From the NCBI GenBank assembly GCA_963762565.1, contig CAVXLD010000007.1, positions 512,001 to 576,000 of the forward strand: a stretch of DNA of 64,000 nucleotides, in the 5' to 3' direction. Numbering within the stretch: position 1 is the first letter of the stretch; each line of letters opens with the position of its first letter. The DNA comes from an uncultured Verrucomicrobiae bacterium. Lineage in GTDB: Bacteria; Verrucomicrobiota; Verrucomicrobiia; Chthoniobacterales; JAFAMB01. Positions 1-58,472 of this stretch are shown here, piece after piece. The notes below the pieces were generated by a model. The model had not been told where the DNA came from, searched no databases, and saw nothing but the letters and a program-made list of their open reading frames with translations. Both the position numbers and the translations under genes were made by a program.

Positions 1-210
1 ATCGGGCACGAGTTCACGGTTGGTGACGTCCGTCTTTTGGGAACGGAAGAGAGCCGGCCTTGTTTCTGGATGGACCACGCCTTTGGCCCCGGTGCTAAAG
101 CAGCGTTGAAAGGGCGAGGGGGGTTACGGGCACAGGTTCTTAGCACGGGGCGGCTGACGGTCAGTCCGAGCTTGTCAGAAGCTCGGAAGGAGCTAGGAGC
201 TAGAATCTAG
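1..210 (+). CDS. MOSC domain protein, C-terminal part (truncated by window edge)
   Basis: My frame-1 translation IGHEFTVGDVRLLGTEESRPCFWMDHAFGPGAKAALKGRGGLRAQVLSTGRLTV... has the MOSC PC..M and GGLRA.V..G motifs. The TAG at 208-210 lies inside the downstream CTAGGAG array. Confidence 0.75.
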   Translation: MGHEFTVGDVRLLGTEESRPCFWMDHAFGPGAKAALKGRGGLRAQVLSTGRLTVSPSLSEARKELGARI

Positions 211-469
211 GAGCTAGGAGGTGCGGCTTTGGTGGGGCGAGGCTCCTGAACGATCCAACCGTTCGAGCGAAGCGATTGGTACTGCATGCCATGGCGTATG
301 GCTAGATCTTAAATCGCGCCGAGCCGTGTTCTATCGTGGGCCATGGCTCGGCGCGTCTATCGGCCTTGCTTACTCATCTCTTGGCGTTCGTACGATGTAC
401 CATTGGTCAATCGCTGGGCTCTGCGGGAGCCTCGCCCCACCAAAAGCCCTCCCACCTCTCCTAGCTCCT
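189..469. repeat. Palindromic MITE/REPIN-like element: CTAGGAG heptamer arms, GGTGGGGCGAGGCTCC inverted repeats, inner GCGCCGAGCC hairpin
   Basis: tttggtggggcgaggctcc (228-246) is the reverse complement of ggagcctcgccccaccaaa (426-444). Heptamer arms at 189-220 and 458-469. Related copies at 20275-20570 and 58111-58472. Confidence 0.85.
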
Positions 470-511
470 TCCCGTTGACTCCCCCTTGCTCTCGCCGGAC
501 GTTCTGGTGCT

Positions 512-2233
512 ATGGCTAACATCCGAGTCGTCTTGCTAATTGGATTGACTGCGATCGCGGCCAATCCAGCTTTCTCACAAATGGACCGAATCACTGGTAA
601 GCCGTTTGTCACCCGCTCCGAAGTCATTGCTAAGAATGGGATGGCAGCAACGGCGCAACCTTTAGCTACCCAAGTTGCCATCGATGTTCTCAAGAAAGGT
701 GGATCGGCCGTTGACGCTGCCATCGCGGCGAATGCGACCCTTGGCTTAATGGAGCCGGTCAGTTGTGGAGTCGGCGGTGACTTATTTGCCATCGTTTGGG
801 ACGCGAAGACTCAGAAATTATACGGCATCAACGGCAGTGGCCGGTCGCCAAAGGGGCTTTCCTATGACCAGATGAAAGCAGAGCTGGCCAAGCAGGGGCT
901 AAAAGGCATCCCTAAGTTCGGCATGCTCAGCATTAGCGTTCCTGGAGCAGTCGACGCCTGGTTCGAGCTTCATAATCGGTTCGGGAAGCTGCCCATGCAA
1001 GAGGACCTGGCTCCCGCTATTCAATATGCTACCGAAGGATTTCCGGTGACGGAGTACATCGCTTATCTTTGGCAGCGTAATCTTCCGGTTATCGCCCATC
1101 AGCCTGGCGCTGTGGTGCAGACGTATACGATTAACGGGTCGGCGCCCAAAAAAGGGGACGTCTTCAAAAATCCGGATCTGGCTGATACCTATCGGATCAT
1201 TGCCGAGAAAGGAAGGGATGCATTCTACAATGGTCCGATAACCGACAAGATCGACGCATTTTTTAGGGCCAACGGAGGTTTCCTACGAAAGGAAGACTTT
1301 AGTTCCCATCATTCCGAATGGGTGGATCTGGTTTCAACCGACTACCGCGGATACGACATTTACGAGCTGCCACCTAACACTCAGGGAGGGACGGTGCTCG
1401 AGATGTTAAATATTTTGGAAGGTTTCGACCTCAAGGCGATGGGTTTTGGTAAACCCGACACGCTCCATGTGATGATCGAAGCGAAGAAACTCGCGTTTGA
1501 AGATCGAGCCCGAATGTACGCCGACCCTGCCTTTTATCCACCTCCGATGGCGCGGCTATTGTCGAAAGAATATGCGGCGGAGCGCCGCAAGTTAATCGAC
1601 ATGAAAAGAGCGGCTCTCCATTACGATGCGGGAGATGCCAAGTTAGCTCAAGGCGATACGACCTATCTCTGCGTGGCGGACAAAGAGGGAAATATGGTTT
1701 CGTTAATCCAAAGTAACTTCCGCGGGATGGGATCGGGAGTCGTTGTTCCGGGACTAGGCTTTGGATTCCAGGACCGAGGAGAGTTGTTTTCTATGGATCC
1801 CGCCCATCCGAACGTTTATGCGCCTGGGAAACGCCCGTTTCATACCATTATCCCCGGGTTCGTCATGAAAGATGGCAAACCTTGGTTGGCTTTTGGAGTC
1901 ATGGGCGGCGATATGCAACCGATGGGACATGTGCAGGTCCTCACGAATCTGATCGATTTCGGTATGAACCTGCAGGAAGCAGGGGATGCGGCTCGTTGGC
2001 AACATGAAGGTTCTTCCGAGCCCACCGGCGGTACTATGACGGACGGCGGTTGGGTTAACTTCGAGTCCGGTTACCCGTATGAAAGCATCCGCGAGTTAAT
2101 GAACCGGGGCCATCACATTCGTTTTGATCTTGGCGGTTATGGCGGCTATCAAGCGATTATGCGCGACGATCAACAGGGCGTTTATTACGGCGCATCTGAA
2201 AGCCGAAAAGATGGATGTGCGATAGGGTATTGA
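512..2233 (+). CDS. ggt: Gamma-glutamyltransferase (signal peptide)
   Basis: GG.AVDAAIA, GVGGD.F, YELPPN.QG, DTTYL (Thr nucleophile), PGKRPFHTIIP and GVMGG.MQP motifs. Confidence 0.95.
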   Translation: MANIRVVLLIGLTAIAANPAFSQMDRITGKPFVTRSEVIAKNGMAATAQPLATQVAIDVLKKGGSAVDAAIAANATLGLMEPVSCGVGGDLFAIVWDAKTQKLYGINGSGRSPKGLSYDQMKAELAKQGLKGIPKFGMLSISVPGAVDAWFELHNRFGKLPMQEDLAPAIQYATEGFPVTEYIAYLWQRNLPVIAHQPGAVVQTYTINGSAPKKGDVFKNPDLADTYRIIAEKGRDAFYNGPITDKIDAFFRANGGFLRKEDFSSHHSEWVDLVSTDYRGYDIYELPPNTQGGTVLEMLNILEGFDLKAMGFGKPDTLHVMIEAKKLAFEDRARMYADPAFYPPPMARLLSKEYAAERRKLIDMKRAALHYDAGDAKLAQGDTTYLCVADKEGNMVSLIQSNFRGMGSGVVVPGLGFGFQDRGELFSMDPAHPNVYAPGKRPFHTIIPGFVMKDGKPWLAFGVMGGDMQPMGHVQVLTNLIDFGMNLQEAGDAARWQHEGSSEPTGGTMTDGGWVNFESGYPYESIRELMNRGHHIRFDLGGYGGYQAIMRDDQQGVYYGASESRKDGCAIGY

Positions 2234-18689: not shown

Positions 18690-20264
18690 GTGATTGATGA
18701 TGTAGCAGTGATCGTTGATGTAACCTTGGTCGGGACCAGACCAACAGTTCACCGGTTGATTTCAATCCCATATGCCCTCCCGCTGAATCGCTTTCATTCC
18801 GTCCTCCAGGTCGTGATGGGGTGGGATGGACAGGCGGCACACATTTTTGCGGGCGGGGATCTGATCGCCGCTGACCCGAACGAGGTCTCCCTGCCGGATG
18901 GCGACCCCGAAGATGAGTCTCAGCTGATCGTGAAAGACCTTCTTCCTTTTGTTACCGCCGAGGCATGCTATTACTACGACCTCTCGACGGAATGGGCCCA
19001 TCGTCTCCGGTTTCTGGGATTCGACCATCAGCCTAGAACGAATGAAATCACACTGCTAAAGGCGCGTGGTAAATGTCCGGTCGAAAGCGCTGCGCTCCGG
19101 ACCTCGGCCCACGTCGCTAAACGGGGCGATAGGGCGAAGTCTGCGAAAAAGGGGAGCAGCAACCATTCGTCGAGCGTCCGAAAGAGCAAGTCAAACACGG
19201 AAAACAGTTCTGTCGATCTGGCGTCGATCAATGACGAGCTTACTCGCCTGAGTCGCCGTTGGCGGCGAAGGCGCCGCCCCCCGGCCAAGAACGGGAGTTC
19301 TGAAATGATATTGCTGGACACCGCAAAAATTCGCGCGGGCTACCTTTCGGATCTTCAGAACGTCAGAAATAGGGTCCTGGCAATCGAAGACGATCTGGCC
19401 CGGCACGAGTCTCAGGACGTTCCAGAACTCCGGCGTTACGTGAACATCGAATTTGGCCCGCGTTTCTCGATCATGCGCGAATTGCAACAAGAGATTGATT
19501 GGCTGGCTGCTCGCCTGGCCCTGGTGCAAAAATTGATGCAACACGGTGTCCGCCCCGTCGGCAAAGCGTACCTCCAGGCTATTCAGATAGAAACCGGTGA
19601 AGCGCCTTACCCGGATTTTCCTCCACAGCGTGACGAACCCCCGCTAGAGGTCTCTGAACCGGAAAACAGATTCGACCGCGAGACGATCAAGAATTTTATC
19701 TCGGAAACGGGCAACGAATTTATGACGGACGAAGAAGTCGAAGCGCTTACGGAAGATGTCCTGGAGGCAGCCGGCAAACGAGACCTCGTCGCGGAGTGCA
19801 AAAGTCTTTACCGAAAGATCGTTTCGTTACTGCATCCGGATCGAGCAGGAGAGATGACCTCGGAGAGAAAGGATCTGTGGTTGCGGGCCCAGGCTGCGTA
19901 TGCCGATGGCGACGTGCTCAGTTTGCGATCGATCTTGGATCGATGCGGAGCCGGTACGCGTGACCAATACTTGATCTGCTCGGAGATTATCGAAGCGATC
20001 GCGGAGGCCGCGGTCCAATTGCAAGCGATCGAGATGTTCCGCGAACGCGAGGCAAAGGAGGCGAGTTGGGATTTTTGTCGTTTAAGCGAGAAGAGGAGAA
20101 GGAGTCGTTTACGCCGCGTCACAAAGGATCTTGATGAGGAGGAGAATGACCTGAGAATCCAGGTGGCAGAGCTGCAAAGAGAATGTAAGAGCCTGGAAGA
20201 AAAGGCGAAGGATTGGGAGAGCCGCCAGGGAGATGGGACGGCGCAGATGGATCTGTTCCGGTGA
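18690..20264 (+). CDS. pRiA4b ORF-3-like domain fused to coiled-coil and J-domain-like (HPD) region
   Basis: N-terminal HRLI.IP...L..FHSVLQVVMGW...H.F...YYYD....W.H...G.CPVE. C-terminal LYRKIVSLLHPD..G....LW..AQ.AY..GD and long charged helices. Confidence 0.7.
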   Translation: MIDDVAVIVDVTLVGTRPTVHRLISIPYALPLNRFHSVLQVVMGWDGQAAHIFAGGDLIAADPNEVSLPDGDPEDESQLIVKDLLPFVTAEACYYYDLSTEWAHRLRFLGFDHQPRTNEITLLKARGKCPVESAALRTSAHVAKRGDRAKSAKKGSSNHSSSVRKSKSNTENSSVDLASINDELTRLSRRWRRRRRPPAKNGSSEMILLDTAKIRAGYLSDLQNVRNRVLAIEDDLARHESQDVPELRRYVNIEFGPRFSIMRELQQEIDWLAARLALVQKLMQHGVRPVGKAYLQAIQIETGEAPYPDFPPQRDEPPLEVSEPENRFDRETIKNFISETGNEFMTDEEVEALTEDVLEAAGKRDLVAECKSLYRKIVSLLHPDRAGEMTSERKDLWLRAQAAYADGDVLSLRSILDRCGAGTRDQYLICSEIIEAIAEAAVQLQAIEMFREREAKEASWDFCRLSEKRRRSRLRRVTKDLDEEENDLRIQVAELQRECKSLEEKAKDWESRQGDGTAQMDLFR

Positions 20265-20274: not shown

Positions 20275-20570
20275 ATGATTGTGATTGGTGATTAGTGACC
20301 GGTGATTTGTGGGGCAGGCCTAATTTGGTAGAGGCTCCCGAAAGACCGTGTGTTTCGCCAGGGGAAATCGACGGACACCAAATGAGTAGTGGGTTACTCC
20401 CTCGAAACGCGCCGAGCCGTGATCCAGCGCTCGACCACGGCTCGGCGCGCTTTTTGGTGTATCCGCATAGTTCGGCCAGGACAATCGGCTGCTTCGATTC
20501 AATTGCGCGGTCTTTCGGGAGCCTCGCCTCACCAAATTAGGCCACCGCCACCCACCAATCACCAATCACG
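20275..20570. repeat. GAGGCTCCCG-family element with GTGATTG heptamer arms
   Basis: ggcctaatttggt.gaggctcccgaaagaccg / cggtctttcgggagcctcgcctcaccaaattaggcc inverted repeat. Inner gcgccgagccgtg/cacggctcggcgc hairpin. Confidence 0.85.
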
Positions 20571-20578: not shown

Positions 20579-21421
20579 CTATCCTTGCACCGTAAGCTGG
20601 CGTTGTTCGCCCAAACGCTCGACCCCTAGTCTAACCACCTGACCTGGTTTCAAAAAGACGGGGGGTTTCATGGCCATACCCACACCCGGAGGAGTTCCAG
20701 TGGCGATGACATCGCCCGGGTTCAGAGTCATGATCCGGCTCAAATAACTCACCAGTATCGCAACGCTGAACACCATGGTTTTGGTGGTACCGGATTGCCG
20801 GCGGACACCATCAATTTCAAGCCAGAGCTGCAGATTCTGCGGATCTGGTACTTCGTCCTTAGTCACCAACCAGGGACCAATCGGTCCGAACGTATCGAAT
20901 CCCTTGCCTTTATCCCAGGTTGGTCCGCGCTCGATTTGGTACTCGCGTTCGGAGACATCATTCACGACGCAATAGCCCGCCACGTAATTCAACGCGTCCG
21001 TCTCGGATACCCGCTGCGCGGTTTGTCCAATGATCACACCTAGTTCGACTTCCCAATCCGTCTTGGTCGACCCTGGCGGAATTTGAATGTCATCGTTGCA
21101 ACCGTTGACGCAGGTAACCCATTTGTTGAACACGACCGGCTCTTTTGGAATAGCTGCACCGGTCTCTGCGGCGTGATCCGCGTAGTTGAGCCCAATCCCG
21201 ACAAATTTGCCGATAGCACCTACACAGGCACCAATTCTCGGTTCGCCGGGAACCGGCGGCAGCCCGGCAGGATCGATCGCCCGTAGCCGGGCCAGCGATT
21301 CGTCAGATAGAACCGGCCCCGCAACATCCGTTATCACAGCTGACAGATCTCGTATTTTACCGTCGTTATCGAGAAGTCCCGGCTTTTCCTGGCCCTTTGG
21401 CCCGTAGCGCAACAATTTCAT
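20579..21421 (-). CDS. Fumarylacetoacetate hydrolase family protein (2,4-diketo-3-deoxy-sugar acid hydrolase-like)
   Basis: GLNYADHAAE, DWEVELG, NDVSER, GKGFDTFGPIGP, TGTPPGVG. Start MKLLRYG. Confidence 0.93.
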   Translation of the reverse strand: MKLLRYGPKGQEKPGLLDNDGKIRDLSAVITDVAGPVLSDESLARLRAIDPAGLPPVPGEPRIGACVGAIGKFVGIGLNYADHAAETGAAIPKEPVVFNKWVTCVNGCNDDIQIPPGSTKTDWEVELGVIIGQTAQRVSETDALNYVAGYCVVNDVSEREYQIERGPTWDKGKGFDTFGPIGPWLVTKDEVPDPQNLQLWLEIDGVRRQSGTTKTMVFSVAILVSYLSRIMTLNPGDVIATGTPPGVGMAMKPPVFLKPGQVVRLGVERLGEQRQLTVQG

Positions 21422-21508
21422 GATAAGATTAAGAAAATTCGAGCGGCCTTCACGACCGCAGCATCGATTAGCGCGACGAGGGGAGAATAGCAAGCGCTGC
21501 GCGCATGA

Positions 21509-21771
21509 CCAATAGCCGATAGCCAATAGCCAAAGGGGATAGCAGCGGCGTGTGGGCGTATCGGCGTATCGGCGTTAGCGCGTAGCGACGTCGTATATGC
21601 CGCGTTAATGAAATCGTGTCGGGGTGGCACGGATGGGACCTATAGGACACATGGGACTTATAGGAGCCGTCTCATTAGTCCCATTTGTCCCATAAGTCCT
21701 ATCCGTGCCATCCCAAGGCGGTCTCATTCAGCCAGCGTACTCCACGTCGTTGCGCCCACACGCCTACACGC
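21509..21771. repeat. Nested repeats: AATAGCC heptamers, 8-mer GGCGTATC arms, inner 9-mer GGGACCTAT element (21625-21710)
   Basis: ggcgtgtgggcgtatcggcgtatcggcg ... cgcccacacgcctacacgcc encloses tggcacggatgggacctatagg ... cctatccgtgcca. Confidence 0.8.
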
Positions 21772-22522: not shown

Positions 22523-22646
22523 GGTTTGTAGGTTCTAAGTTGTAGGTTCTAAGTTGCGGGTTCTAAGTTGCGGGTTCTAGGTCGGGTAGCGACCAACTTA
22601 AAACCTGCAACCTACAACCTAAAACTTAAAACCTATAACCTATAAC
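22523..22646. repeat. Inverted heptamer arrays (TAGGTTC/TAAGTTG vs AACCTA(A/C/T))
   Basis: About 8 units on the left, gtcgggtagcgac loop, about 7 complementary units on the right. Confidence 0.85.
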
Positions 22647-26769: not shown

Positions 26770-26860
26770 GGTGAACTCCGGTTGGTGCTCTGGAGGCAGC
26801 TGTTTAGCGAAAAACAGCTTAATGGCCGGAACCAGCTTATAACAGAACAAACGGCCGGAG

Positions 26861-26966
26861 AAATGACAAATGACAAATGACAAATTGTTGCGGTACCCGT
26901 TGCGCGTACCGCCTAGATCCCCGCGCTTCTCGGCGGATCTGTCATTTGTAATCTGTTATTTGTCAT
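26861..26966. repeat. TGACAAA heptamer-armed element
   Basis: aaatgacaaatgacaaatgacaaat ... tgtcatttgtaatctgttatttgtcat. Confidence 0.85.
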
Positions 26967-28325: not shown

Positions 28326-28424
28326 ATGACAAATGACAAATGACAGATGACAGACTTCGGAACCTACGCACGGCGATTTTCGTCTGTTCTTCAATTTGTC
28401 ATCTGTCATGTGTCATTTGTCATT
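28326..28424. repeat. TGACAAA heptamer-armed element
   Basis: atgacaaatgacaaatgacagatgacag ... tttgtcatctgtcatgtgtcatttgtcatt. Confidence 0.85.
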
Positions 28425-35043: not shown

Positions 35044-35140
35044 GCAGTGAGCAGTGAGCAGTAATCAGTGTGTCAGTAATCAGTAAAGACGACTATGTCG
35101 TGACCGGTTTTGCCGGTACTGCTTACTGCTTACTGCTTAC
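35025..35140. repeat. T(A/G)AGCAG heptamer-armed element between convergent genes
   Basis: agtaagcagtaagcagtgagcagtgagcagtgagcagtaatcagt ... tactgcttactgcttactgcttac. Confidence 0.85.
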
Positions 35141-35164
35141 CGATTCTGCGCCACCTCTTACGTC

Positions 35165-36202
35165 TCACTTTTCGTTCTCGGTCTCGCCACGCCTGATTTC
35201 CTGGAACATGTGCGCCGCTGAATCGCCGTCGATCAGGAGGCCGTTCACGAAGCCCGTTTTCAGGATTCCTTGAGCGGGTCTCAGTTTGCTGCGTCCGCCG
35301 GCGAGCAAGATAACCTCATGCTTTCTGAGGGCTTCTAGATCGATCGCTAAAGTTCGATCGTTAAGTTCAGAGGGCACTACCTCGCCTTTGGCATTAAAGA
35401 ATTTGCCCATCGTATCGCCCACGGCGCCTGCTTTCCGGAGCTCACTGAGCTCTAACGCGGATAGGTAACGGTTCTCGAACAGAAACGCGCGTTCATCGCA
35501 TTCGCCAACGCTAATCAGATAGAAATCGGCTTTCTCAGCCAGCGCTAAGGTTTCTTGAACGATTCTCTGAGACATCAGAATCTGGCGGTCAGCAACCGTG
35601 TTAGCGATAAATGGCACCGGGAGAAAATGACCTTCACCGCCAGTTTTAGCGGCTAGGTGATGGACAACCTCGAACAGGTTTGCAGCCAGGTTCCGGGTTA
35701 ACGACCCCATAACCGAGACGAATCTAGCCTGTGGCCGGCGCATCGCGGGAAGGAGTCTGGCAATCTCTGCGGTAGTACGTCCCCAGCCAACGCCGATGAT
35801 GCATTCCTCATCCACCTGCATTCGTTCCCGTAGTAAATCCACAGCCACCATGGCTACTGCCCGGCGCGCGATTGGACCTTCGTCAGCCAGCTTTGCCGGA
35901 GGCAGCATTTTCGCCGGATGTTCCACCGAGTCCGAGAGAAGAGGCGGAGTGGCTCGACAAAAATCCAGTCCATAATGTCGGCGAATGGTTTCTTCGACTT
36001 CAGCCATCGGTCCGAACCGATGTTCAATGGAGATTTTGACGATACCGGCTTCGCGGGCCTCGGCTAATAGCCTGGCGACTTTAACTCTGGAAACCCCGAG
36101 GATTTCTGCGGTTTGTTCCTGGGTATTGCCACCGACATAGTAAAGCCAGGCGGCTCTGACGAGTTGATCGGACTCAGTGGTGATAGGTTCGGAGGGGTGC
36201 AT
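35165..36202 (-). CDS. SorC/DeoR-type sugar-binding transcriptional regulator
   Basis: AAWLYY..G.TQ...A..LGVSRVKV.RLL, IGVGWGRT, GAVGD..G.FF. Confidence 0.93.
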   Translation of the reverse strand: MHPSEPITTESDQLVRAAWLYYVGGNTQEQTAEILGVSRVKVARLLAEAREAGIVKISIEHRFGPMAEVEETIRRHYGLDFCRATPPLLSDSVEHPAKMLPPAKLADEGPIARRAVAMVAVDLLRERMQVDEECIIGVGWGRTTAEIARLLPAMRRPQARFVSVMGSLTRNLAANLFEVVHHLAAKTGGEGHFLPVPFIANTVADRQILMSQRIVQETLALAEKADFYLISVGECDERAFLFENRYLSALELSELRKAGAVGDTMGKFFNAKGEVVPSELNDRTLAIDLEALRKHEVILLAGGRSKLRPAQGILKTGFVNGLLIDGDSAAHMFQEIRRGETENEK

Positions 36203-36276
36203 CAAAAGAAGGCGGCTAACGGAACAAAAATCGATTCACGCACCTGTTCGTCAAGTGCGAATAACTACCGAAGCTC

Positions 36277-40443: not shown

Positions 40444-41388
40444 ATGAGCCCGATATCAGCAAGACATCAAGCGGCCAACGCACCGGTTTCAGTGACCAAG
40501 TCCTCGAGCCTTAGGCAAACTTCTGGGCCGGAAAAAAAGCAGGCCGTTTTTGTGGGAGCAACGGTGCGTCACATCGTTCTGGCCATCTTTCTGATCTACT
40601 GCATTTTGCCGGCCATGTGGATCATCTCAGCGATGACCAAGGATAACGGCCAAATCTTTACTACCTTTGGATTGTGGTTTTCCTATCCATTACATTTTCT
40701 GGAGAACTTAGGGGGCCTGATCAGCTATCAGGACGGAATCTTTGTACGCTGGTTTGGAAACTCGCTGATCTACGCGGGCTCGATCTCTTTTGGCAGCACG
40801 ATGATCTGTGCGTTAGGAGGTTACGCGTTTTCCAAGTACGACTTTCCGGCAAAACAGTTCATTTTTAATTTCATCCTCGGAACCATCATGGTTCCTTCCA
40901 CCGCACTCGTCCTGCCCTTGTTCCTGATGCTGAACAAGATCGGCCTGGTCAATAACATGTTGGGCGTAATCCTTCCCAGCTTAGTTAACCCGTTTGGGCT
41001 TTACCTGATGAAAGTGTTCTGGGATTCGTCCTTGCCTAACGAACTCATTGAGGCTTCGCGACTAGAGGGCGCGAGTGAACTCCAAATTTTTTGGCGGATC
41101 GGTTTGCCTCTCATGCAAACCGGGCTGGTAACGGTTGCCCTGTTAGCGTTCGTGGGCGCCTGGAACAACTTCTTTCTCCCATTGATTGTTTTGAGCGAAC
41201 AACACCTGTTCCCGCTGACCCTTGGCCTTAACGTCTGGGATAGCCTGACCTCCGCCGCCGGCGGTAAACCAATTTACAATTTAATTGCCGTCGGTTCTAT
41301 GGTTAGCGTCCTGCCGCTGCTGATTGCCTTTGTGGTTTTGGGCAAATATTGGCGCGGAGGGCTGACCGCAGGCGCAACGAAAGGGTAG
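40444..41388 (+). CDS. Carbohydrate ABC transporter permease (CUT1)
   Basis: LPNELIEASRLEGA, WNNFFLPL, GLTAGATKG. Confidence 0.95.
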   Translation: MSPISARHQAANAPVSVTKSSSLRQTSGPEKKQAVFVGATVRHIVLAIFLIYCILPAMWIISAMTKDNGQIFTTFGLWFSYPLHFLENLGGLISYQDGIFVRWFGNSLIYAGSISFGSTMICALGGYAFSKYDFPAKQFIFNFILGTIMVPSTALVLPLFLMLNKIGLVNNMLGVILPSLVNPFGLYLMKVFWDSSLPNELIEASRLEGASELQIFWRIGLPLMQTGLVTVALLAFVGAWNNFFLPLIVLSEQHLFPLTLGLNVWDSLTSAAGGKPIYNLIAVGSMVSVLPLLIAFVVLGKYWRGGLTAGATKG

Positions 41389-41396: not shown

Positions 41397-41546
41397 GAAA
41401 GGTGATTGGTGATTGGTGATTGGTGGATCTGATGGGATGTGCGGTTTTGAATAGTCAACTTTTTCCAGTCGGCCGATGCGGTCGGGCCCGTCCCCACTGG
41501 GCCAACCAATCACCAATCACCAATCACCAATCACCAATCACCTTTC
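41397..41546. repeat. GTGATTG heptamer-armed element
   Basis: gaaaggtgattggtgattggtgattggt ... accaatcaccaatcaccaatcaccaatcacctttc. Confidence 0.88.
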
Positions 41547-43782: not shown

Positions 43783-44205
43783 TCACCCAACCTTCCCCCG
43801 CACCGCGTCATAATCGTACGTCGTCACTTCTAACCGGTTACCGTAAGGATCGCTGAAGTAGACGGAGAACGATTTTTCGTGATCGGCGATTTCGGAGCGA
43901 CGAACCGCGTCGGCTCCTTCGAGAGCATCTAATTGCTCGACCAATTTAACAAAATCATCCCCTCCAATTCTGAATGCGACTCGCCGAATGCCGATCGGGC
44001 GCGTCGCACCTTGAGGTTGCCCTTCAAATAGAGCGAGTTTGGTCTGACCACCGTCAGGCGAGATCATGAGTGGGCCGCGCTGAGGTTCGGCCCAGAACAC
44101 ATATTCCGGGCAAATCTCGAATCCTAATACGGTTTGATACCAACGGGCCGCTGTTTGGCGGTCTGGTACCTCGAGCTCGACGTGATCGATCTGCGTTACG
44201 CGCAT
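43783..44205 (-). CDS. VOC/glyoxalase family protein
   Basis: IDHVELEV.D....[21 protein letters not shown]. Confidence 0.9.
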
Positions 44206-44270
44206 TAGAGTTTGACCATAACCGATTTGGCGTCGTCTGTTTACCACCGCTTTTCAAAGATTTTATTTTC

Positions 44271-45041
44271 ATGAGTACGGATCGTTCTTGGAGCCTCGCT
44301 GGTAAATTCGCCGTGGTAACCGGTGGATCGAAAGGAATCGGTTTAGCCACGGTCTCAGAGTTGCTACAACATGGCGCCTCGGTGCTTTCCGTGGCCCGCG
44401 ATAGCCAAACCTTGGCGGCATCGGTTCAAGATTGGCAAAAGCAAGGGCTACCGGTGACGACGGTGGCGGCGGATGTAAGTACTCCTCAGGGGCGGTCACA
44501 CGTTCTGGCTGAGGCGGCAAAGTCCAAGCGCATCGATGTCCTTGTGGCCAACGTTGGTACTAACATCCGCAAAGGGTTCGAGGACTACACGACGGAAGAG
44601 GTTCTCCACATCTTAAACACGAATCTGATCTCTTCGATTGAACTGGTGCGGGACGCATTCCCTTTATTGAAAGCCGGGTCTGATCCTTCCGTGGTTCTGG
44701 TTGGCTCGATTGCCGGTCTCAACACCGTCCGCACCGGTATTCCCTACGGTGCATCCAAAGCGGCGCTCAACCAGGTGACCCGCGGACTAGCGGTAGAATG
44801 GGCCAAGCACAAGATCCGGGTGAACCTGGTGGCCCCGGGGTTTATTGCTACCCCTCTCACCGAGGCCCTGTTGGGGAACGAAGAATTCATGGCCTATATC
44901 CGGACTCGGATCCCGATGGAACGTCCCGGACAGGCCGGAGAAGTAGCCACGCTGATCGCCTTTCTGACGATGCCAGCCTCCAGCTATGTCACCGGCCAAA
45001 TCTTCGTCGTCGACGGCGGCGCGTCGTCCAACCTGATCTAG
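44271..45041 (+). CDS. SDR oxidoreductase (tropinone reductase-like)
   Basis: [35 protein letters not shown]. Confidence 0.92.
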
Positions 45042-45056
45042 CGACCTCGCTAGACC

Positions 45057-45147
45057 AAATGACAGATGAGAGGATGACAAATGACAGATTGACGCCAACC
45101 AGCGTCGAACGCAGTCACCCTCTATTTGTCATCTGTCATTTGTCATT
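45057..45147. repeat. TGACA(A/G)A heptamer-armed element
   Basis: aaatgacagatgagaggatgacaaatgacaga ... tttgtcatctgtcatttgtcatt. Confidence 0.85.
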
Positions 45148-45148: not shown

Positions 45149-45619
45149 TTACGCCGCCACCTTAATCGACGGAACCACTTCCACCGGAAAGTTCACAGAG
45201 TTGGCAATAAAGCACAGCGCGTGAGCCCGTTCGTGTAACTCATGCGCGGCCTTCAACCCGGCCTCCGAAGTAATCACGATCTCGGGATGCAACACGACCT
45301 TCGTAAATCTGCCGGCGCCGTTGGCGGTTATTTCCATTTCTCCTTCCGCCGCATCGGAGTAATGGGTGCAGATAATTTTCTGCTCCGAGCAGAGATGCAG
45401 GTACCAAAGCATGTGGCACGCAGATAACGACGCCACGAGCAGATCTTCCGGGTTATAACGGGCAGGATCACCCCGGAATTTCGGGTCAGACGATCCGGCT
45501 AGAACCGGCTTTTGAGGAATTCGGACGTCATAAGAACGTTCGTAGTCGCGATAACTGGAGGTTCCTTTGCCGGTGTTGCCAGTCCAGACGGTGGTCAATG
45601 AGTAATGATGGGAGGGCAT
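45149..45619 (-). CDS. OsmC family protein
   Basis: WTGN.G.GT..Y..Y.R, NPEDLLVASLSACHMLWYL, AH..CFIANSV. Confidence 0.92.
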   Translation of the reverse strand: MPSHHYSLTTVWTGNTGKGTSSYRDYERSYDVRIPQKPVLAGSSDPKFRGDPARYNPEDLLVASLSACHMLWYLHLCSEQKIICTHYSDAAEGEMEITANGAGRFTKVVLHPEIVITSEAGLKAAHELHERAHALCFIANSVNFPVEVVPSIKVAA

Positions 45620-45627
45620 GGGAGCAA

Positions 45628-45958
45628 TTACAGATGACAAATGGCAGATGACAAATGACAAATTGGTGGGGCAAAGCCGCGGGCGTCCGTGGAGGGGAGC
45701 CGCTTTGTCGCTCGGCAGCTCTGTAGCTCGTTCAACAAGCGGCTCCCGGAAATGATCCAGCGTGATGTTTTGCCCATCGCGTCTACTCCGGGAGCATGGA
45801 AATACGACTCGATAGAAATCCGACGCGCTGGCTCGTTCCCGGGAGCCGCTTGTTAAAAGGCGGATAGACCTGCCTCCCTACAAAGCAGCTCCCCTCCAGT
45901 CGCACGGTGCTTTCGGGAACATCCGCCAATCTGTCATCTGTCATTTGTCATCTGTCAT
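45628..45958. repeat. TGACAAA element containing a nested four-arm GGAGGGGAGCCGCTTTG element (45690-45898)
   Basis: Heptamer arms outside. Inside: tggaggggagccgctttgt / caagcggctcccgg / ccgggagccgcttg / acaaagcagctcccctcca. Confidence 0.85.
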
Positions 45959-46367
45959 CGTCTCTGCCGCTGCCAGGCGGCAGCGAGAGCGACAACCGCC
46001 AACTAATCCGCCAAGCCCCATCCTGCTTTGACAGCGCCAGCCAATCGCGGCCTTCATCATGCACGTTACTGCCGTGGATCTCGTAATCGATCTGCCATCC
46101 GTAGGTTGCCATAACAAATCCGGCGAATGGTATGATGTCGGGTTCCTCCTCTTTATAGCCAAGTACTTTGGCGATTCCCATGAAGTCGCGATAGCTTTGA
46201 ATGCAGGCTTCTCTACCCTCGAGCAGGCGATCACCTTTTGAGTCTTGGAACACCACGCCTGCCGCAAACAGAGGTTCCAGCTGGTCGAACTGCCTTTGTT
46301 GCCAAGCCAGGCTTAGCGATTTGGTCACACCAGTAATCTGGTCAGGATCCGCAAGTTCATTTCCCAT
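45948..46367 (-). CDS. NTF2/SnoaL-like (DUF4440-type) protein
   Basis: AW....FDQL..LFA..VVF, GREACIQSY.DF, DEGRD...L....GAWRI.WR. Stop lies in the heptamer arm. Confidence 0.8.
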   Translation of the reverse strand: MGNELADPDQITGVTKSLSLAWQQRQFDQLEPLFAAGVVFQDSKGDRLLEGREACIQSYRDFMGIAKVLGYKEEEPDIIPFAGFVMATYGWQIDYEIHGSNVHDEGRDWLALSKQDGAWRISWRLSLSLPPGSGRDDDR

Positions 46368-46374
46368 CACGTTA

Positions 46375-46647
46375 GTGTCCTGTCCCATAAGTAACATGGC
46401 TTTCGCCGTCGGCCAGGTGGCTGTTTTTCAAGGCGCGAGCGAAGTGCCCATATTTGATTCATACGGGTCGAGCGAGCAACGCGGAAAAACAGCCACCTGG
46501 CCACGGCCCGGAGGGTTGCGATGAAAATGAGCCGGCGGCTGCGTTGCTCGTCGGTTACGTATCAATCTAGATATGCGCCCTCCTCGCGTCTTGCCGGCGG
46601 CCCATTTTGATCGCAACGAAAGCCATGCTATTTATGGGACAGGACAC
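46375..46647. mobile_element. MITE with 16-bp TIR GTGTCCTGTCCCATAA
   Basis: Perfect TIR at 46375-46390 / 46632-46647. Internal hairpin ggccaggtggctgtttttc / gaaaaacagccacctggcc. Solo end at 53234-53249. Confidence 0.8.
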
Positions 46648-46757
46648 CAATTTCTGCTGATAAAACTGGTTCAATCCTAGCAGAAAAGGATTACTATACC
46701 CACACTGGACTGCCAACCAGCGGTCCATCTGGTCGGTGACCCTGTTATCGCGTTACT

Positions 46758-47471
46758 ATGTCCCACTCGGTGGAATCCCATCTACGCCTAGACATCGCGG
46801 AATACGACCAGCTGATCCGTCGATTCATTCCCGACTACGACGAAATGTTGGGCGAATTGGCGAACTACTTAGCCTTTTATCTGGTCGATAGAGAGCGGCC
46901 TCACGTGTTGGATCTTGGCACCGGTACTGGGTCCTTGGCGGCTTTGGTTCTAAAGCGGATCCCGAACTCAACTGTGATCGGTATCGATTCAGATCCGGCC
47001 ATGATCGTGGAAGCACGTGAACGGCTAGCAGATTTATTACCAAGAGTTACCCATCTTCTCGGGGACTTTTTTGGCCCGTTACCGCATGGTTCTGATGCGT
47101 GCACGGCCTCGTTGGCATTACACCATGTTCGCGAGCTAACCGAAAAACGGCGTCTTTACCGCAAGATTCTGGGTGCGTTGACACCCCACGGAATTTTCAT
47201 TAACGCTGATGCGATGTTTGCTGAAAACAGCCCGCTAGAGCAATGGATGCGGTCGGCTTGGTCTAAACACATTATTACTAGCGGTTTTAGTAAAACCGAA
47301 GTGGCGTCGCACTTTGAGCAATGGTCAACCGAAGACCGATATTTCGAGGTGCAAACCGAGCTACACCTGTTGCACGAGGCGGGCTTTTCTAACCTCGAAG
47401 TGGTCTGGCGCCGAGGCCCCATGGCGGTGATCGCAGCCCATAAGGGGGGTGAGGCGAGAGGTGAGAAGTGA
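46758..47471 (+). CDS. Class I SAM-dependent methyltransferase
   Basis: VLDLGTGTG, GIDSDP.M, SLALHHV, L.P.GIFINAD. Confidence 0.92.
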   Translation: MSHSVESHLRLDIAEYDQLIRRFIPDYDEMLGELANYLAFYLVDRERPHVLDLGTGTGSLAALVLKRIPNSTVIGIDSDPAMIVEARERLADLLPRVTHLLGDFFGPLPHGSDACTASLALHHVRELTEKRRLYRKILGALTPHGIFINADAMFAENSPLEQWMRSAWSKHIITSGFSKTEVASHFEQWSTEDRYFEVQTELHLLHEAGFSNLEVVWRRGPMAVIAAHKGGEARGEK

Positions 47472-47624
47472 TTGGTGAGAGGTGAGAGGACCGCGCGGGA
47501 CAGGCGGAAGGCGACCCGGAAGGGTGTGCGCAACGGCTAACACGGATGGGACCTATGGGACTTATAGGACTTATGTGACCGTGACCCATAGGTCCCATTG
47601 GTCTCATAAGTCCCATCCGTGCCA
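47448..47624. repeat. GTGAGA(A/G) heptamer arm plus 9-mer GGGACCTAT element (47541-47624)
   Basis: ggtgaggcgagaggtgagaagtgattggtgagaggtgagagg, then cacggatgggacctatgggacttatagg ... cataagtcccatccgtg. Confidence 0.8.
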
Positions 47625-47789: not shown

Positions 47790-48806
47790 ATGATAAAGCT
47801 CCTGGAACCCCGACCTCTCCGCGGAGAAGCGGACCTGCTAGAGGAAGGTGTCTCGCAGCGAAGAGACCGTGGTTTGGCATCGCTACGGTTCCGACAAGTT
47901 TCTCCTCCAACAGACGAAACATTCGTCAGCCGGTTAGCTCTGCGGCGGCTACAAACCCATCTATTATCCGATCACTTCCTCGGGGCAGTAATGGGAGCGG
48001 CTAGAAGCCCGAACGGTGACAAATGGGCTGCGTCCTCTCGACAACGGCTTTTCCGGCAGAACGTGGAGGGACTCCGGCGGGATCTCCAGGACCTGGTCGT
48101 TGAGACGGTTACAGATGAGCGGCATGACCTTTCGATTTTCCAAGTAGAGGGATCCCGGTTGTGGGCAGGTAAGGAGCGGTATCCTTCTTTGCGTGCTTAC
48201 GCCGTCGATAAACTCGCGGAGAAGTCGTTTGTTCAGGCCAGTTCCGGACGGGACATACCTGAGCTCTTTGAGCGGGCGATGCTAGGGGCGACGGAAGCAC
48301 TCTTCGACGAAAGCCTTTTGCCAAAAGTAACACGTCGCAGCTGGGATGAGACTTATTGGTGGACAGACTCGATCCATTGGCCGGCCTTGGGTTCTCTTCT
48401 CCGGCTCTGTCTCGATCGAAGTATCGACCTGCATTTTCGAGCGCAGTTGGTGATCGTCGATCTCAATGCAGCGGCGCTGACCAGGCTGTCGAACAATTGG
48501 AAATCAATTCTTTGCACAAAATCGGTCTGGGGAGCGATCGATCATGTCGCTCGCACCATGGAGATACCGTACTTCCATATTGCCATTCCGGTGGAACCGA
48601 GCGGTGAGATGCGCAGTTTTTCAGTCGATATCGTCGAGTTGCGCGACCAAAATTGTACCGTCGAAGATCATCTGGTCTGTCTGCCGGCAGGTCATCCTCA
48701 GTCAGAATCTCTTGCTGCTGAAGTCTTACTGCGTTCGGACGCTGTCGATGTAGTGTCCAACCTCCCTCAATTGATCGAACGTCTGCCCAGCGAACTTCTT
48801 TTGTGA
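47790..48806 (+). CDS. Hypothetical protein
   Basis: 338-aa open frame filling the gap between repeats. No family recognised. Confidence 0.6.
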   Translation: MIKLLEPRPLRGEADLLEEGVSQRRDRGLASLRFRQVSPPTDETFVSRLALRRLQTHLLSDHFLGAVMGAARSPNGDKWAASSRQRLFRQNVEGLRRDLQDLVVETVTDERHDLSIFQVEGSRLWAGKERYPSLRAYAVDKLAEKSFVQASSGRDIPELFERAMLGATEALFDESLLPKVTRRSWDETYWWTDSIHWPALGSLLRLCLDRSIDLHFRAQLVIVDLNAAALTRLSNNWKSILCTKSVWGAIDHVARTMEIPYFHIAIPVEPSGEMRSFSVDIVELRDQNCTVEDHLVCLPAGHPQSESLAAEVLLRSDAVDVVSNLPQLIERLPSELLL

Positions 48807-49183
48807 GAAGTGAGAAGTGATTGGTGAGAAGTGAGAGGTAGGTGGGCGTCGCCCGCTGACACGACACCCAATTCGAACTCGTCGCAGTACTCCATCACTC
48901 CGCGTGGCCGGATTCGAGAACAGCCTGTCCGCCGTAGCCCACGGTCTACGTTGCCAACCGCTCGAAGTCGGCCTCGCAAGCGAGGCGCGCTCCACAACCA
49001 AGGAGTCGGCGAAGGCGGAAGGACGACGACGAGGACGAGAACGAAGCCCCTGCCATACGCGGAGGAATGCTACACCTTCATCGGGCTTTATGCGCGAAGC
49101 GGATCCCCGTATTTTGACCCACGGCGTGAATCTGCCGACTGACGGGGCCTCTCACGTCTCACGTCTCACCTCTCACTTCTCAC
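48803..49183. repeat. GTGAGAA heptamer element containing the nested ~140-bp repeat (48906-49049)
   Basis: gtgagaagtgagaagtgattggtgagaagtgagagg ... cctctcacgtctcacgtctcacctctcacttctcac. The inner part is the reverse complement of 2243-2381. Confidence 0.85.
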
Positions 49184-49309
49184 ATCTTTGCAGTAGTGTT
49201 ATTTCCTTGTTGATTTTTGCGACCTAGCACATAGCCTCGCCATAGTTCCCCCGTCGCTGGCAATCGTCAGCAACCAATCAACCGGTCCCGGGTCGGAAAA
49301 ATCGCGATT

Positions 49310-50395: not shown

Positions 50396-50404
50396 GAAGC
50401 GCGC

Positions 50405-55582: not shown

Positions 55583-57415
55583 CTACTGCTTACTGACCAC
55601 GTTCGCCAATTTCTCCACCGAGAAGACCGGTGGAGAACAGGTGCGGTCCGTACAGACGTAAGCAGCAGCGCTCTCCAGTGTCGGATATTCGACGTCGTTG
55701 TTTGGTAACGCACCTTCTTGGCTGTCCCACCATTCCACCCGCTTATAAAAGGAGGGAAGTTTCAGAGCGGAACTGAAAAGAGAAGCAGCGGTCGCATCTC
55801 TTTTCGAGCCTACCACGGTGACGTGGAGAGGTGGAGTCGTGAGTTCGCGATTAGCCAAAAGAATTCCGGAGACGAGAAACCCGCGTTCGTCCGCGACAGC
55901 CGGGATGCTCAGAAACTGCATTGCGTGCCGAGCCATCGTCTCGTAGGCCTTTATCCCGCTATACTTCTCGAGCAAGTTAGCAAATCGAGCGAGGTCAACA
56001 TTCTCATCAATTTGCGGCTTCGATTTTAAAGCACCGTTAGCAGGAGAAGTTAAATAACCGAGATCACCTTTGAAGTGTTGATCAATGTAATTGGCAGCTT
56101 CCTTCGCGTATCGAAGCCAATCGCGATTCGCTGTTACCGTGTAAAGAGTTATGAAGGCGCGGCCCATGTACAACGTATCAGCGAGGTAAGGGCCGGCCTT
56201 ATCTGTCTCGTCATGGCTGAAGCCGCCTTCCGCCATTCTTCGATGGGCGATGATCCAATTTGCCGCCCGGATTGCATCCTCCAACGGTTGGCGGTCGCCG
56301 GAAACCGCGCTAAGCACGGCCAGAGCATTGATGGCCCAGCCGTTCTCTCGGGAGTAAACGTGCCGGTCGACCCCAGGGATTCCGAGCGTTCTGCGTTCGG
56401 AGTCCCCAAGCTTAAAGTAGTCGGCAGAATGTTCACCTGGGACCAGGTCGGCGTCTTGACTCGCGTAGAAGGTCCCTTCTGGCGACATTAGAAAGCTTCT
56501 CAAATAGTCATAGATCTTCTTCGAGGTATTGAGGTAGATAGGATCACCCCACACCGCATAGGCTTCCGCATAAGTGCGGATGTTCTCCGCCTGCATCTGC
56601 ATAATCTTTTCGAAGTGCGGATGTCGCCAATCGCCGTCTGTGGAATATTGGCAAACACCGCCCCAAATCGGATCAATCAAGTTGAGCTGCGCTGCGAGCG
56701 TCTCCTGGCCCATCCGGGCGAGACTGGTGTCGCCTTGCATACTCGCGACCAGGCAATATTCGATTGTGTCCCAATTGAGGAATTTCTGTACGGTGCCCCA
56801 GCCTTTGTTCTTCGAATCGTAAGCGTCAATCAAACGCTGCCGCAGCCGGTCAATGTCTTTGTCGGAAAGAAAAGCTTGATCGGAGGGAGATAATTTCGAT
56901 TCGGGGAGGATGGAAGGACCGGGCGATGGATCATCGATAATCGCCTGTAACATCGAGGCCATCGGTTTTGGAGGGATGTATCCTTGGCGTTTAACGATTT
57001 CGCTTCCGTCTGTATTAAACACGATGGTAGCGGGCCAACCGTAATCCTCATAACGATTGGCAAGGTCGGGTCGTGAATCTGCGTCTACCCGAACCGCGAG
57101 GTAACGAGATCGGATAAGTTTTATGACAGCTGGGTCCGCGTAAGTGACGTCTTCCATTACGTGGCACCAGTGACACCAGCCCGTTCCCAAATCGAGCAAC
57201 ACGAATCGCTCTGCCTCTTTTGCTTTGCTGAAAATCGAGTCGGACCAAGGCTGCCATGTGATCTCATCTGCCCCTCTCAGATTAAGACAGAAGAACGGTG
57301 TCAGGAATGCGGTCAATAATATCAGGCGACAGACCCGTTTTATCGGTTGCCATAAGAAGGCTTGGTCAGGCGTGATTGGACCCAACTGATTCTGTTGTGT
57401 ACGCACGGCAGTCAC
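55583..57415 (-). CDS. Thioredoxin-domain protein (YyaL/SPATA20/DUF255 family)
   Basis: WCHWCHVME..TY, VDAD.RPDL, GWPAT, PHFEK.M, FYASQDAD, AYVC...TCS.P. Start uncertain. Confidence 0.9.
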   Translation of the reverse strand: MTAVRTQQNQLGPITPDQAFLWQPIKRVCRLILLTAFLTPFFCLNLRGADEITWQPWSDSIFSKAKEAERFVLLDLGTGWCHWCHVMEDVTYADPAVIKLIRSRYLAVRVDADSRPDLANRYEDYGWPATIVFNTDGSEIVKRQGYIPPKPMASMLQAIIDDPSPGPSILPESKLSPSDQAFLSDKDIDRLRQRLIDAYDSKNKGWGTVQKFLNWDTIEYCLVASMQGDTSLARMGQETLAAQLNLIDPIWGGVCQYSTDGDWRHPHFEKIMQMQAENIRTYAEAYAVWGDPIYLNTSKKIYDYLRSFLMSPEGTFYASQDADLVPGEHSADYFKLGDSERRTLGIPGVDRHVYSRENGWAINALAVLSAVSGDRQPLEDAIRAANWIIAHRRMAEGGFSHDETDKAGPYLADTLYMGRAFITLYTVTANRDWLRYAKEAANYIDQHFKGDLGYLTSPANGALKSKPQIDENVDLARFANLLEKYSGIKAYETMARHAMQFLSIPAVADERGFLVSGILLANRELTTPPLHVTVVGSKRDATAASLFSSALKLPSFYKRVEWWDSQEGALPNNDVEYPTLESAAAYVCTDRTCSPPVFSVEKLANVVSKQ

Positions 57416-57466
57416 GAGTTAAGATGCTTCCCGGCGGTTGTTTATTTCAAGAATCGATCGCCAAAT

Positions 57467-58111
57467 ATGATTCGTATCGAAGCAATCTTTGCGGGTGAGC
57501 CTCAGAGCATCACGGACGAAAAAGGGACATGGTTTTCTGCGATCTGTCGGACACGTGTGGAAGGACCTATCGAGCTTCGAGAGAGAGGTTTGGCCGGGGA
57601 TCGTGTCGCAGATACGAAGAATCATGGCCGGCCCGGTCAGGCGGTCTGCGTCCACCCGCTTACTCACTACGATTTTTGGAATCAGCTATACGATCTAACA
57701 GGCGCGGAGTGCCTGGGACCAGGTAGTGTCGGTGAGAACTGGACGATCAGCGGAGGAGATGAGGAAACCATCTTCTGCGGTGACGTTTATCGGGTCGGAA
57801 CGACAATCGTACAGGTGTCGGGTCCCCGCGGGCCGTGTTGGAAACAAGAACGTAAGCTCGGATTGGACGGCTTCTTGAAGCGCACGATCGATTCGATGCG
57901 AACCGGTTTTTATCTGAGGGTTTTACAGCCTGGGATTGTGGAGACCGGCGACACTTGGGAGCTGGAGAGCAGATTTAAAGACCCGGTTTCTGTGAACCTG
58001 GTAAATCAAGGTGCGTATCGCGGGGTGGAACCGAACGCCCTTGAAAGGATGCTAAGTGCGGAAGGGGTAGTACCAGAGTGGAAAGAGATGTTGCGGGCGC
58101 GGGGGAAGTGA
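57467..58111 (+). CDS. MOSC domain protein (YiiM-like)
   Basis: GLAGD.VAD...HG, GENWTI, QVSGPRGPCWK, RTGFYLRVL.PG.V. Confidence 0.92.
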   Translation: MIRIEAIFAGEPQSITDEKGTWFSAICRTRVEGPIELRERGLAGDRVADTKNHGRPGQAVCVHPLTHYDFWNQLYDLTGAECLGPGSVGENWTISGGDEETIFCGDVYRVGTTIVQVSGPRGPCWKQERKLGLDGFLKRTIDSMRTGFYLRVLQPGIVETGDTWELESRFKDPVSVNLVNQGAYRGVEPNALERMLSAEGVVPEWKEMLRARGK

Positions 58112-58472
58112 GGAGCTAGAATCTAGGAGCTAGGAGCTAGGAGCTAGGAGGGGGTGCTCTAATTTGGTGGGGCGAGGCTCCCCGAAGAACCCATCGTTAT
58201 CGCGAAGGGATTAAACGTTCTCGATTGGGATTGGTCGCAATACGCCCAACGCCCGCCGAGCCGCGGTGCAAGGTGTGCCAAGCTTGGACGGGAAGGAATA
58301 GAACAAAATCGCCACGCGGTTAGCGCTGGGCCCGGCTCGGCGTGCGGGTCGGCCTTGTTCGCGGCAAGGCCATCGAAAGGTCAATATCTTCGCGGACGCC
58401 ATCGGGCCATTCGGGAGCCTCGCCCCACCAAAATGGCCGGGCCCCACTCCTAGCTCCTAGATTCTAGCTCCT
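58111..58472. repeat. CTAGGAG-armed GGTGGGGCGAGGCTCC element
   Basis: Perfect 26-bp terminal inverted repeat 58111-58136 / 58447-58472. Inner tttggtggggcgaggctcccgaa / ttcgggagcctcgccccaccaaa. Confidence 0.9.

Follow-up and report, generated by a model that had tools for sequence, protein, structure and literature searches.

Gene-less palindromes with heptamer arms and inward-facing stop codons at gene ends of an uncultured Verrucomicrobiae bacterium

Heptamer-armed palindromes in the window and in the genome

The stretch of DNA analyzed here, hereafter the window, comprises 64,000 nt of an uncultured Verrucomicrobiae bacterium (assembly GCA_963762565.1, contig CAVXLD010000007.1, positions 512,001 to 576,000), whose assembly spans 6.12 Mb at 54% G+C. 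It contains a series of palindromes whose arms are tandem arrays of 7-base words, and protein-coding genes, among them a histidine kinase, a DeoR-like gene, and a methyltransferase-like gene, end inside or next to them. We called short tandem arrays with Tandem Repeats Finder (TRF), took as a heptamer array any array of period 7 with at least 3 copies, and defined an inverted pair as two arrays of the same word, within one mismatch, whose arms lie at most 700 nt apart. This yielded 72 short tandem arrays in the window and 5321 genome-wide, where period 7 was the commonest period (1590 of the 5321 TRF rows).

A preliminary description of the window had named seven families of units, each of which can be written with a stop triplet, and had argued that three units of period 7 put a stop in every frame, the inverted arm doing the same on the other strand. 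All seven families are present with their stop triplet (TAGGAGC, TGATTGG, TAGCCAA, TAAGTTG/TAGGTT-type, TGACAAA, TAAGCAG/TGAGCAG, and TGAGAAG). The window holds 20 period-7 arrays with at least 3 copies, and 18 of them close three frames on at least one strand; the other two, 45056-45086 and 45626-45663, close two. Eight inverted pairs were called, one of which (45124-45147 with 45626-45663) is an artefact of two neighboring elements, and all 7 of the remaining pairs carry their stops on the inward-reading strand, as described. Four of the window's palindromes were folded; each gave a long hairpin (z -7.3 to -8.2), and not one of 200 shuffles folded as well.

The same picture extends to the whole genome. 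We found 1287 heptamer arrays built from 88 units when the two strands are collapsed, and 1064 of them lie for the most part in intergenic DNA. The commonest words are GGTGATT, TAGGAGC, TGACAAA, and TAGCAAA, and paired arrays are inverted in 303 cases versus direct in 25, with a median inter-arm gap of 98 nt. The preliminary description had proposed a genome-wide test of stop content and polarity against shuffled heptamers, and both turned out as it anticipated. A stop triplet occurs on at least one strand in 1123 of the 1287 arrays, versus 62% for letter-shuffled units, and 38% of random intergenic heptamers outside arrays contain one; all three frames are closed on at least one strand by 974 arrays. 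The stops of the 303 inverted pairs face inward only in 196 cases and outward only in 11; 67 pairs have them on both strands and 29 on neither. The outward-only class includes at least one artefact of two neighboring elements in the window. The sequence pattern is real and strongly non-random in this genome.

The property is not shared by all the tandem repeats. Families of 8- and 9-mers had been described as lacking all-frame stops, and this proved correct: only 77 of 415 period-8 arrays (19%) contain a stop triplet, versus a letter-shuffled expectation of 31%, and most period-9 arrays close a single frame. Stop-less families with the same architecture are abundant and include heptamers (GGCGTTT and CGGCGTT), 8-mers, and the 6-mer CCTCGT.

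Genes that end inside the arrays

To relate arrays to genes we used our own codon-usage caller, which gave 4830 genes covering 80% of the genome; their 3' ends are reliable and their starts are not. The stop codon lies inside a heptamer array in 185 of the 4830 genes (about 4%), and in 138 of the 3294 with a high coding score. The stop used is the first triplet of the array in 85 of these genes, the second in 54, the third in 43, and a later one in 3. About 100 of the 185 pass one or two out-of-frame stop triplets first, and the median length of array read before the stop is 8 nt. In a further 275 genes the array starts between -25 and +20 nt from the end of the stop codon, for a total of 460 genes, 353 of them with a high coding score. 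Together with orthologs that have array-encoded tails (see below), these numbers uphold the proposal that the elements can sit on gene 3' ends without read-through. Six genes of the window had been given as examples, and five of them stop inside a called array, at its first, second, or third stop triplet (Table 1). For the sixth, 35165..36205, the stop lies in a degenerate remnant not called by TRF, and the called array ends 24 nt from it.

Arrays lying wholly within called genes number 103, and 97 of them lack a sense-strand stop in their unit; 66 of the 103 have stops on the antisense strand only. The outgoing strand of each arm is stop-free, so a longest-open-reading-frame caller can run gene starts through the arms, and we suspect that many of these 66 arise from starts over-extended in this way. 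Called starts inside arrays are seen in the window at 20579..21526, 26266..26883, and 45149..45661.

We compared gene ends with orthologs from five genomes of the same genus (G002, G003, G004, and G005 among them). The preliminary description expected C-termini to change where the element is missing, and this was observed for some genes and not for others. The C-terminus and the stop codon of 47790..48806, 45149..45661, and 44070..45041 are unchanged in orthologs without the array: the G003 ortholog of the first has the same TGA and no left arm, and no heptamer array follows the stop of the other two in the four genus relatives compared. Stops are shifted by 4-5 codons at the two other genes. 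The orthologs of 46758..47471 in G002, G003, and G004 end with HK(G/A)EK, the array starting exactly at the stop codon, and the product is 5 residues longer here. Similarly, 45948..46397 is 4 codons (DDDR) longer than its G004 ortholog, and the extra codons traverse array units. At the histidine kinase and the convergent DeoR-like gene the tail differs in each species, and often so does the word found at the gene end. Tails reading GEK, GET, or SER before the stop are in-frame readings of TGAGAAG-type units.

The arms of the palindrome at 48803-49187 are kept in four genus members (including G002, G004, and G005), and the interior has been replaced by a different one in each species. No clean pair of an empty and a filled site was recovered from the genus orthologs or from soil contigs for window positions 44000-50400; in contigs of four soil DNA runs matching this segment, the short-read contigs break at the arrays, and the joints are mostly to other copies of the same arms. 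The segment also holds two dispersed repeats. One, of about 275 bp (46373-46647), lies between 45948..46397 and 46758..47471, recurs at least 33 more times in this genome (85-96% identical), and is present in all five genus relatives. The other, of about 165 bp (48885-49051), is nested in the TGAGAAG palindrome and has copies elsewhere in the genome and in genus relatives. Positions 10526-11012 are occupied by a 243-bp unit repeated in tandem without any mismatch (2.0 copies, 100% identical), which contains 9-mer word arrays.

Table 1. Arrays and palindromes of the window, and four-helix-bundle genes found between inverted arrays. Positions are those of the window unless a genome and contig label is given.
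Feature	Position	Strand	Relation to genes and remarks
TAGGAGC array, 4.7 units, stops on both strands	188..220	.	Upstream + strand gene ends at the third TAG, 208-210
TGATTGG left arm (20276-20311), CACCAAT right arm (20553-20569, 2.4 units)	20276..20569	.	Gene 18690..20264 ends 11 nt before the left arm
TAGCCAA array	21509..21533	+	Three + frames all closed
Palindrome with period-14 left arm (TAAGTTG alternating with CAGGTTC) and AACCTAA right arm	22526..22646	.	
TGACAAA-family palindrome, arms 26861-26885 and 26937-26963	26861..26963	.	
TGACAAA/TGACAGA palindrome	28326..28424	.	Left arm closes three + frames, right arm three - frames; long hairpin, -49.6 kcal/mol, z -8.2
TAAGCAG/TGAGCAG palindrome	35025..35140	.	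Third stop triplet of the left arm (35041-35043) is the stop of the histidine kinase gene 33418..35043; hairpin -58.8 kcal/mol, z -7.7
Degenerate TGAGAAG-like remnant, not called by TRF	35141..35167	-	Holds the TGA of the DeoR-like gene 35165..36205
GGTGATT palindrome	41401..41542	.	12 nt past the stop of 40444..41388; hairpin -73.1 kcal/mol, z -7.4
TGACAAA-family palindrome between convergent genes	45056..45147	.	14 nt past the stop of 44070..45041; 1 nt from the stop of 45149..45661
TGACAGA/TGACAAA arms, 265-bp interior	45626..45959	.	Second TGA of the right arm is the stop of gene 45948..46397 (-)
TGAGAGG/TGAGAAG array	47451..47489	+	Methyltransferase-like gene 46758..47471 ends at the second TGA
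TGAGAAG arms, 313-bp interior	48803..49187	.	First TGA of the left arm is the stop of gene 47790..48806
TAGGAGC arms, 296-bp interior	58111..58472	.	Left arm overlaps the last stop base of 57362..58111; right arm ends 13 nt before the stop of 58486..59196 (-)
TIGR02436 genes between inverted tandem arrays	G000 C5:443059-443376, C11:106028-106348, C11:16010-16330, C7:441183-441500		
TIGR02436 genes between inverted tandem arrays, continued	G000 C1:1345332-1345658, C3:44257-44478, C5:382239-382502		

Four-helix-bundle cassettes and other heptamer repeats

The preliminary description had suggested a search for a small gene, such as one for a four-helix-bundle protein, enclosed by the same arms elsewhere in the genome. 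Such a gene exists: a recurrent small protein encoded between widely spaced arms matches TIGR02436 ("four helix bundle protein") with 65 bits versus a cut-off of 24. The genome has 9 TIGR02436 matches, 8 of which were examined with an enclosure limit of 450 nt. Within this limit an inverted tandem-array pair encloses 6 of the 8, and the mate array of a seventh lies just beyond it; the background is 60 enclosed genes among the 4830 called. The array words are TGAGAAG, GGTGATT, TAGCCAA, an 8-mer, and a 6-mer at one copy each, and TAAGCAG at two. Relatives show the same association at 15 of 29 TIGR02436 loci, three of the 29 having a flank cut by a contig end. Across phyla, a gene search based on a 6-sequence alignment gave 80 four-helix-bundle genes, 57 of which lie between inverted arrays; the period is 7 in 56 of the 57. 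The palindromes of the window itself enclose no TIGR02436 gene. They may nevertheless descend from such cassettes, as the shared words suggest: the words at TIGR02436 genes match abundant gene-less palindrome families, as expected for master and derived copies. The 8-mer arms of the copy on contig C7 reach 21-27 units.

How such elements might be mobilized can be asked by comparison with REP/REPIN sequences (repetitive extragenic palindromes), high-copy intergenic hairpin repeats of which a few copies flank a RAYT transposase gene, their possible mobilizing partner. The elements described here are likewise abundant intergenic hairpin repeats, a few copies of which lie on either side of a small gene that might be a mobilizing partner. 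They differ from the REPIN/RAYT type in having tandem arrays as arms and not a fixed palindrome of 20-40 bp. A RAYT-partnered REPIN system was ruled out, since none of the 10 Y1-transposase genes (PF01797 matches over the cut-off) is flanked by tandem-word arrays or has inverted tandem arrays within 600 nt.

A different parallel is given by the 23S rRNA intervening sequence of Coxiella burnetii. As reported (PMC4990558), its inverted terminal repeats form a long stem around an S23p/four-helix-bundle open reading frame (ORF), tandem GACAGAT heptamers lie upstream of this ORF in a copy number that varies among strains, and the sequence, located in rRNA helix 45, is excised by RNase III. This heptamer is the same cyclic word as TGACAGA in our genome, where the ACAGATG word family has 56 arrays. 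Unlike the Coxiella sequence, the elements here lie between protein genes, are mostly gene-less, and have long arrays as arms. RNase III is reported to cut at the start of the heptamer repeat (PMC4990558), and this brings up the idea that the palindromes serve the host at gene 3' ends, the hairpins acting as RNase III sites, stabilizers, or unconventional terminators and the stops keeping ribosomes off the stem. Such a role would fit the length and stability of the hairpins, the conservation of the arms at 48803-49187 in four genus members, the fact that arrays are closer to gene 3' ends than to 5' ends, and the density of inverted pairs, which is highest in convergent spacers (0.28 per kb, versus 0.22 in tandem and 0.16 in divergent ones). 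It seems improbable to us in view of the rapid turnover of words and interiors between species at the same gene end, of the copies in divergent spacers, and of the lack of any excess of terminator-like sites. Canonical intrinsic terminators were indeed rejected as the identity of the hairpins: positions 26001-46000 contain 24 such sites, and shuffled sequence gives 22.5 (sd 5.2). In no case do the two arms of a heptamer palindrome make up such a site, and the one at 28372-28384 is a small hairpin in the interior of 28326-28424.

Repeats of 7-base words near coding boundaries have been described in other bacteria. According to MacGregor 2015 (PMC4679880), the TAACTGA repeats of marine Beggiatoaceae and some cyanobacteria give stops in three frames when forward copies are read, overlap coding ends by at most 18 nt, with 13 sets overlapping the upstream stop codon, and are tolerated inside ORFs in reverse orientation. 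They resemble our arrays in having a 7-base unit with a stop triplet whose tandem copies stop all three frames, and the heptanucleotide simple sequence repeats treated in the same paper share with ours the head-to-tail 7-nt units, the excess of this period, and the mostly noncoding location. The TAACTGA repeats are made of one word, nearly always direct (one indirect case is reported), and mostly located just upstream of start codons, whereas here there are dozens of words, inverted hairpin arms, inward stops on both strands, and a location mostly at gene 3' ends. TAACTGA itself is absent among the 60 commonest of the 88 units of this genome.

The architecture has a counterpart in the heptamer arrays GGGAATC of Xanthomonas and GGGGA(C/T)T of Nostoc. 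Rehm et al. 2015 (PMC4692102) describe these arrays as abundant and intergenic, with 70-75 convergent inverted GGGAATC pairs per Xanthomonas genome; they are under-represented between divergent ORFs and show a strong preference for positions that overlap a stop codon or are at most 50 bp from one. Our elements likewise consist of same-word convergent arrays near or over stop codons, least dense between divergent genes. By our reading of the units printed there, the Xanthomonas and Nostoc words are G-rich quadruplex formers without stop triplets, unlike those found here, where none of the four commonest words has a run of at least 3 G. That GGGAATC-type words lie near stop codons and yet are stop-less fits the view that proximity to stops needs no stop in the word. 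Two published patterns, heptamers with stops in every frame and paired heptamer arrays at stop codons, are combined here in a new lineage with many words. Palindromes with many words and with stops of inward polarity did not turn up in a full-text search of an open-access library.

Stop codons as by-product, safeguard, or target

We favor, with a probability of roughly 0.55, the reading that the palindromes are gene-less foldback repeats in which stops are a tolerated by-product of word ancestry and base composition and not a stop-seeking device. Each arm would be a slippage-prone tandem array of a 7-base word, and the repeats would belong to the same class of element as those that enclose TIGR02436 ("23S rRNA intervening-sequence protein") genes here and in many phyla, the gene-less copies descending from, or moving with, the four-helix-bundle cassettes. 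The word set of the genus would stem from a few related purine-rich words, in which one T followed by two purines makes a stop triplet. Because a period of seven shifts the reading frame from one unit to the next, all frames are closed by three units, and since the purine-rich arm is the 5' arm on both strands, the stops face inward on both. The arrays would pack against gene ends, those carrying stops overlapping the last codons by up to about 18-20 nt. Where a native stop is lost or bypassed, the next in-frame stop of the array would take over within 21 nt, leaving a tail, such as GEK, of at most about 6 residues encoded by the array. The consequence would be permissive and not designed.

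The preliminary description went further and took the design or targeting of the elements to be based on stop codons. This part was not supported, in view of the broad offsets of arrays from stop codons, the use of divergent spacers, the C-termini and stops that several genes share with orthologs lacking the array, the purine polarity of stop-less 8-mers, the linkage of the words into 6 clusters, and the chance-level stop content of other lineages. The starts of stop-carrying arrays scatter between about -21 and +40 nt relative to the stop codon's end, without a single peak and in all three phases. Arrays whose sense strand is stop-free accumulate at -1 to +4 nt; these are therefore also pressed against the coding boundary and are unable to cross it. 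Inverted pairs are found in tandem (154), convergent (71), and divergent (46) spacers, and the share of arrays that carry stops is 88%, 92%, and 87%, respectively, even though divergent spacers hold no gene end. Targeted insertion, in which a recombinase or transposase would recognize TAG, TAA, or TGA and place the element exactly there, is hard to reconcile with array starts spread over about 60 nt, with the 46 divergent pairs, with stop-less arrays flush with stop codons, and with different words at the same gene end in different species. It might account for the arrays that begin at a native stop, as at 47790..48806 and in the methyltransferase orthologs of G002, G003, and G004, and for the 85 of 185 genes that use the first array triplet, but the 100 of 185 that are out of phase with that triplet speak against it, and we regard it as very improbable.

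Word polarity seems to follow composition more than stops. The 5' arm is purine-rich in 17 of the 20 heptamer families with at least 2 pairs, and the same is true of 8 of 10 period-8 families, in which T is nearly absent and inward stops do not occur. In the hexamer family CCTCGT, with 36 inverted pairs, the 5' arm is rich in pyrimidines, a polarity opposite to that of the period-7, -8, and -10 families; this family encloses one four-helix-bundle gene. Single substitutions link the 35 heptamer families into 6 clusters, of which 3 have an inward stop versus 2.4 expected, although single-linkage clustering probably over-merges words in so small a sequence space.

The within-word conservation of stop positions is equivocal. 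When cyclic 3-nt windows are ranked by conservation, the stop window is second of seven, and the most conserved single position is not a stop position. Variant units altered at a stop position retain a stop in 55 of 205 cases, and the ratio of transitions to transversions is 92:82 at stop positions versus 627:232 elsewhere, so purine transitions are not favored at stops. The hypervariable position is the sixth when the stop is written first (663 of 1225 mismatches), as in TGACAAA/TGACAGA, TGAGAAG/TGAGAGG, and TGATTGG/TGATTAG. Outside the stop triplet, purines are changed mostly by A/G transition; if an A of the 5' arm became G, pairing would be preserved as a G-T wobble.

We also noted that words of the 5' arm are Shine-Dalgarno-like and those of the 3' arm like the 16S rRNA 3' tail: at least 5 nt are shared with a 13-nt consensus by 9 of 35 words, versus 0 of 35 when reverse-complemented. 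This likeness exceeds that of letter-permuted words (P = 0.003) and is confounded with purine richness. That consensus itself holds two stop triplets, and the likeness is hence not separable from the stop signal.

Other lineages provide a further view of the word set. Genomes were sampled as random 20-kb pieces. In those sharing the words of this genome (G002, G004, G012, and G014), 51 of 53 sampled arrays carry stops, and in genera of the family with other words (G016, G009, G017, G011, and G024), sampled at 40-200 kb each, 20 of 54 do, versus about 22 expected. Three further genomes had no heptamer array in the 40-100 kb sampled. The arms around four-helix-bundle genes across phyla comprise 41 distinct words. 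Of these, 19 carry an inward stop, where 16.0 would be expected, and 13 an outward stop, where 6.9 would be. Sorted by strand, 12 words have stops on the inward-reading strand alone, 6 on the outward-reading strand alone, and 7 on both, and the remaining 16 are stop-less. With inward stops near expectation, this cross-phylum set indicates that a stop rule is not general to this class of element. Carrying stops is a trait of the words of a single lineage and not a general design rule of heptamer-armed hairpins, those around four-helix-bundle genes included.

Several observations weigh against the by-product reading. The distinct units with a stop number 61 of 88 versus 47.9 expected (P about 9e-5 if the units are independent). 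Base composition predicts an inward stop in 19.5 of the 35 families and an outward stop in 8.7, and the observed numbers are 27 and 11; the inward excess has P = 0.0014 if the families are independent, and among families with at least 2 pairs it is 16 of 20 versus 10.9 (P = 0.0037). In the two large clusters the stop is kept in 26 of 29 word variants, and changes in variant units fall on the three stop positions 39, 127, and 47 times versus 179, 136, 663, and 34 times on the other four. Conditioning on composition may moreover mask selection if the composition itself results from selection for stops. The samples of other genera are small, at 54 arrays, and our gene caller is crude.

These observations may instead reflect selfish DNA made safe for translation, in which words with one inward stop were favored because foldback elements that stop every frame on both strands can settle on last codons or within operons without producing long tails or fusions, such copies surviving more often. 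The above excess of inward stops over composition, the 26 of 29 variants, and stop positions that vary less than most others would all be expected. So would be the 185 genes whose stop lies in an array, with the first triplet passed in about 100 of them, the stop shifts of 4-5 codons in orthologs, which would show back-up stops in use, and the 97 of 103 in-gene arrays without a sense-strand stop. We consider this possible but rather unlikely, since the excess vanishes at the level of clusters, divergent spacers have the same stop content, period-8 arrays are poorer in stops than shuffles, and abundant stop-less families share the architecture. Outside the lineage, other genera are at expectation, and across phyla the outward stops are more enriched than the inward ones. 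In its strongest form, which we put forward only tentatively, the word repertoire of the four-helix-bundle-type elements of the genus was selected for exactly one inward stop per 7-base unit, and the arms are two-sided, all-frame translational insulators. If so, the elements colonize last codons and intra-operon gaps, native stops are dispensable at about 4% of genes, and C-terminal tails drift freely within a 21-nt safety net. A weak tolerance filter favoring stop-carrying words is also possible, with a chance of about one in four.

The pattern has practical consequences. Some annotated gene starts probably run through arms under longest-ORF calling, and in protein comparisons tails such as GEK are to be taken as repeat-encoded and not as conserved sequence. 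In about one gene in 25, the stop codon and up to about six C-terminal residues come from a species-variable repeat array. For the biology of repeats, the case shows that selfish or neutral elements are able to sit directly on coding boundaries.

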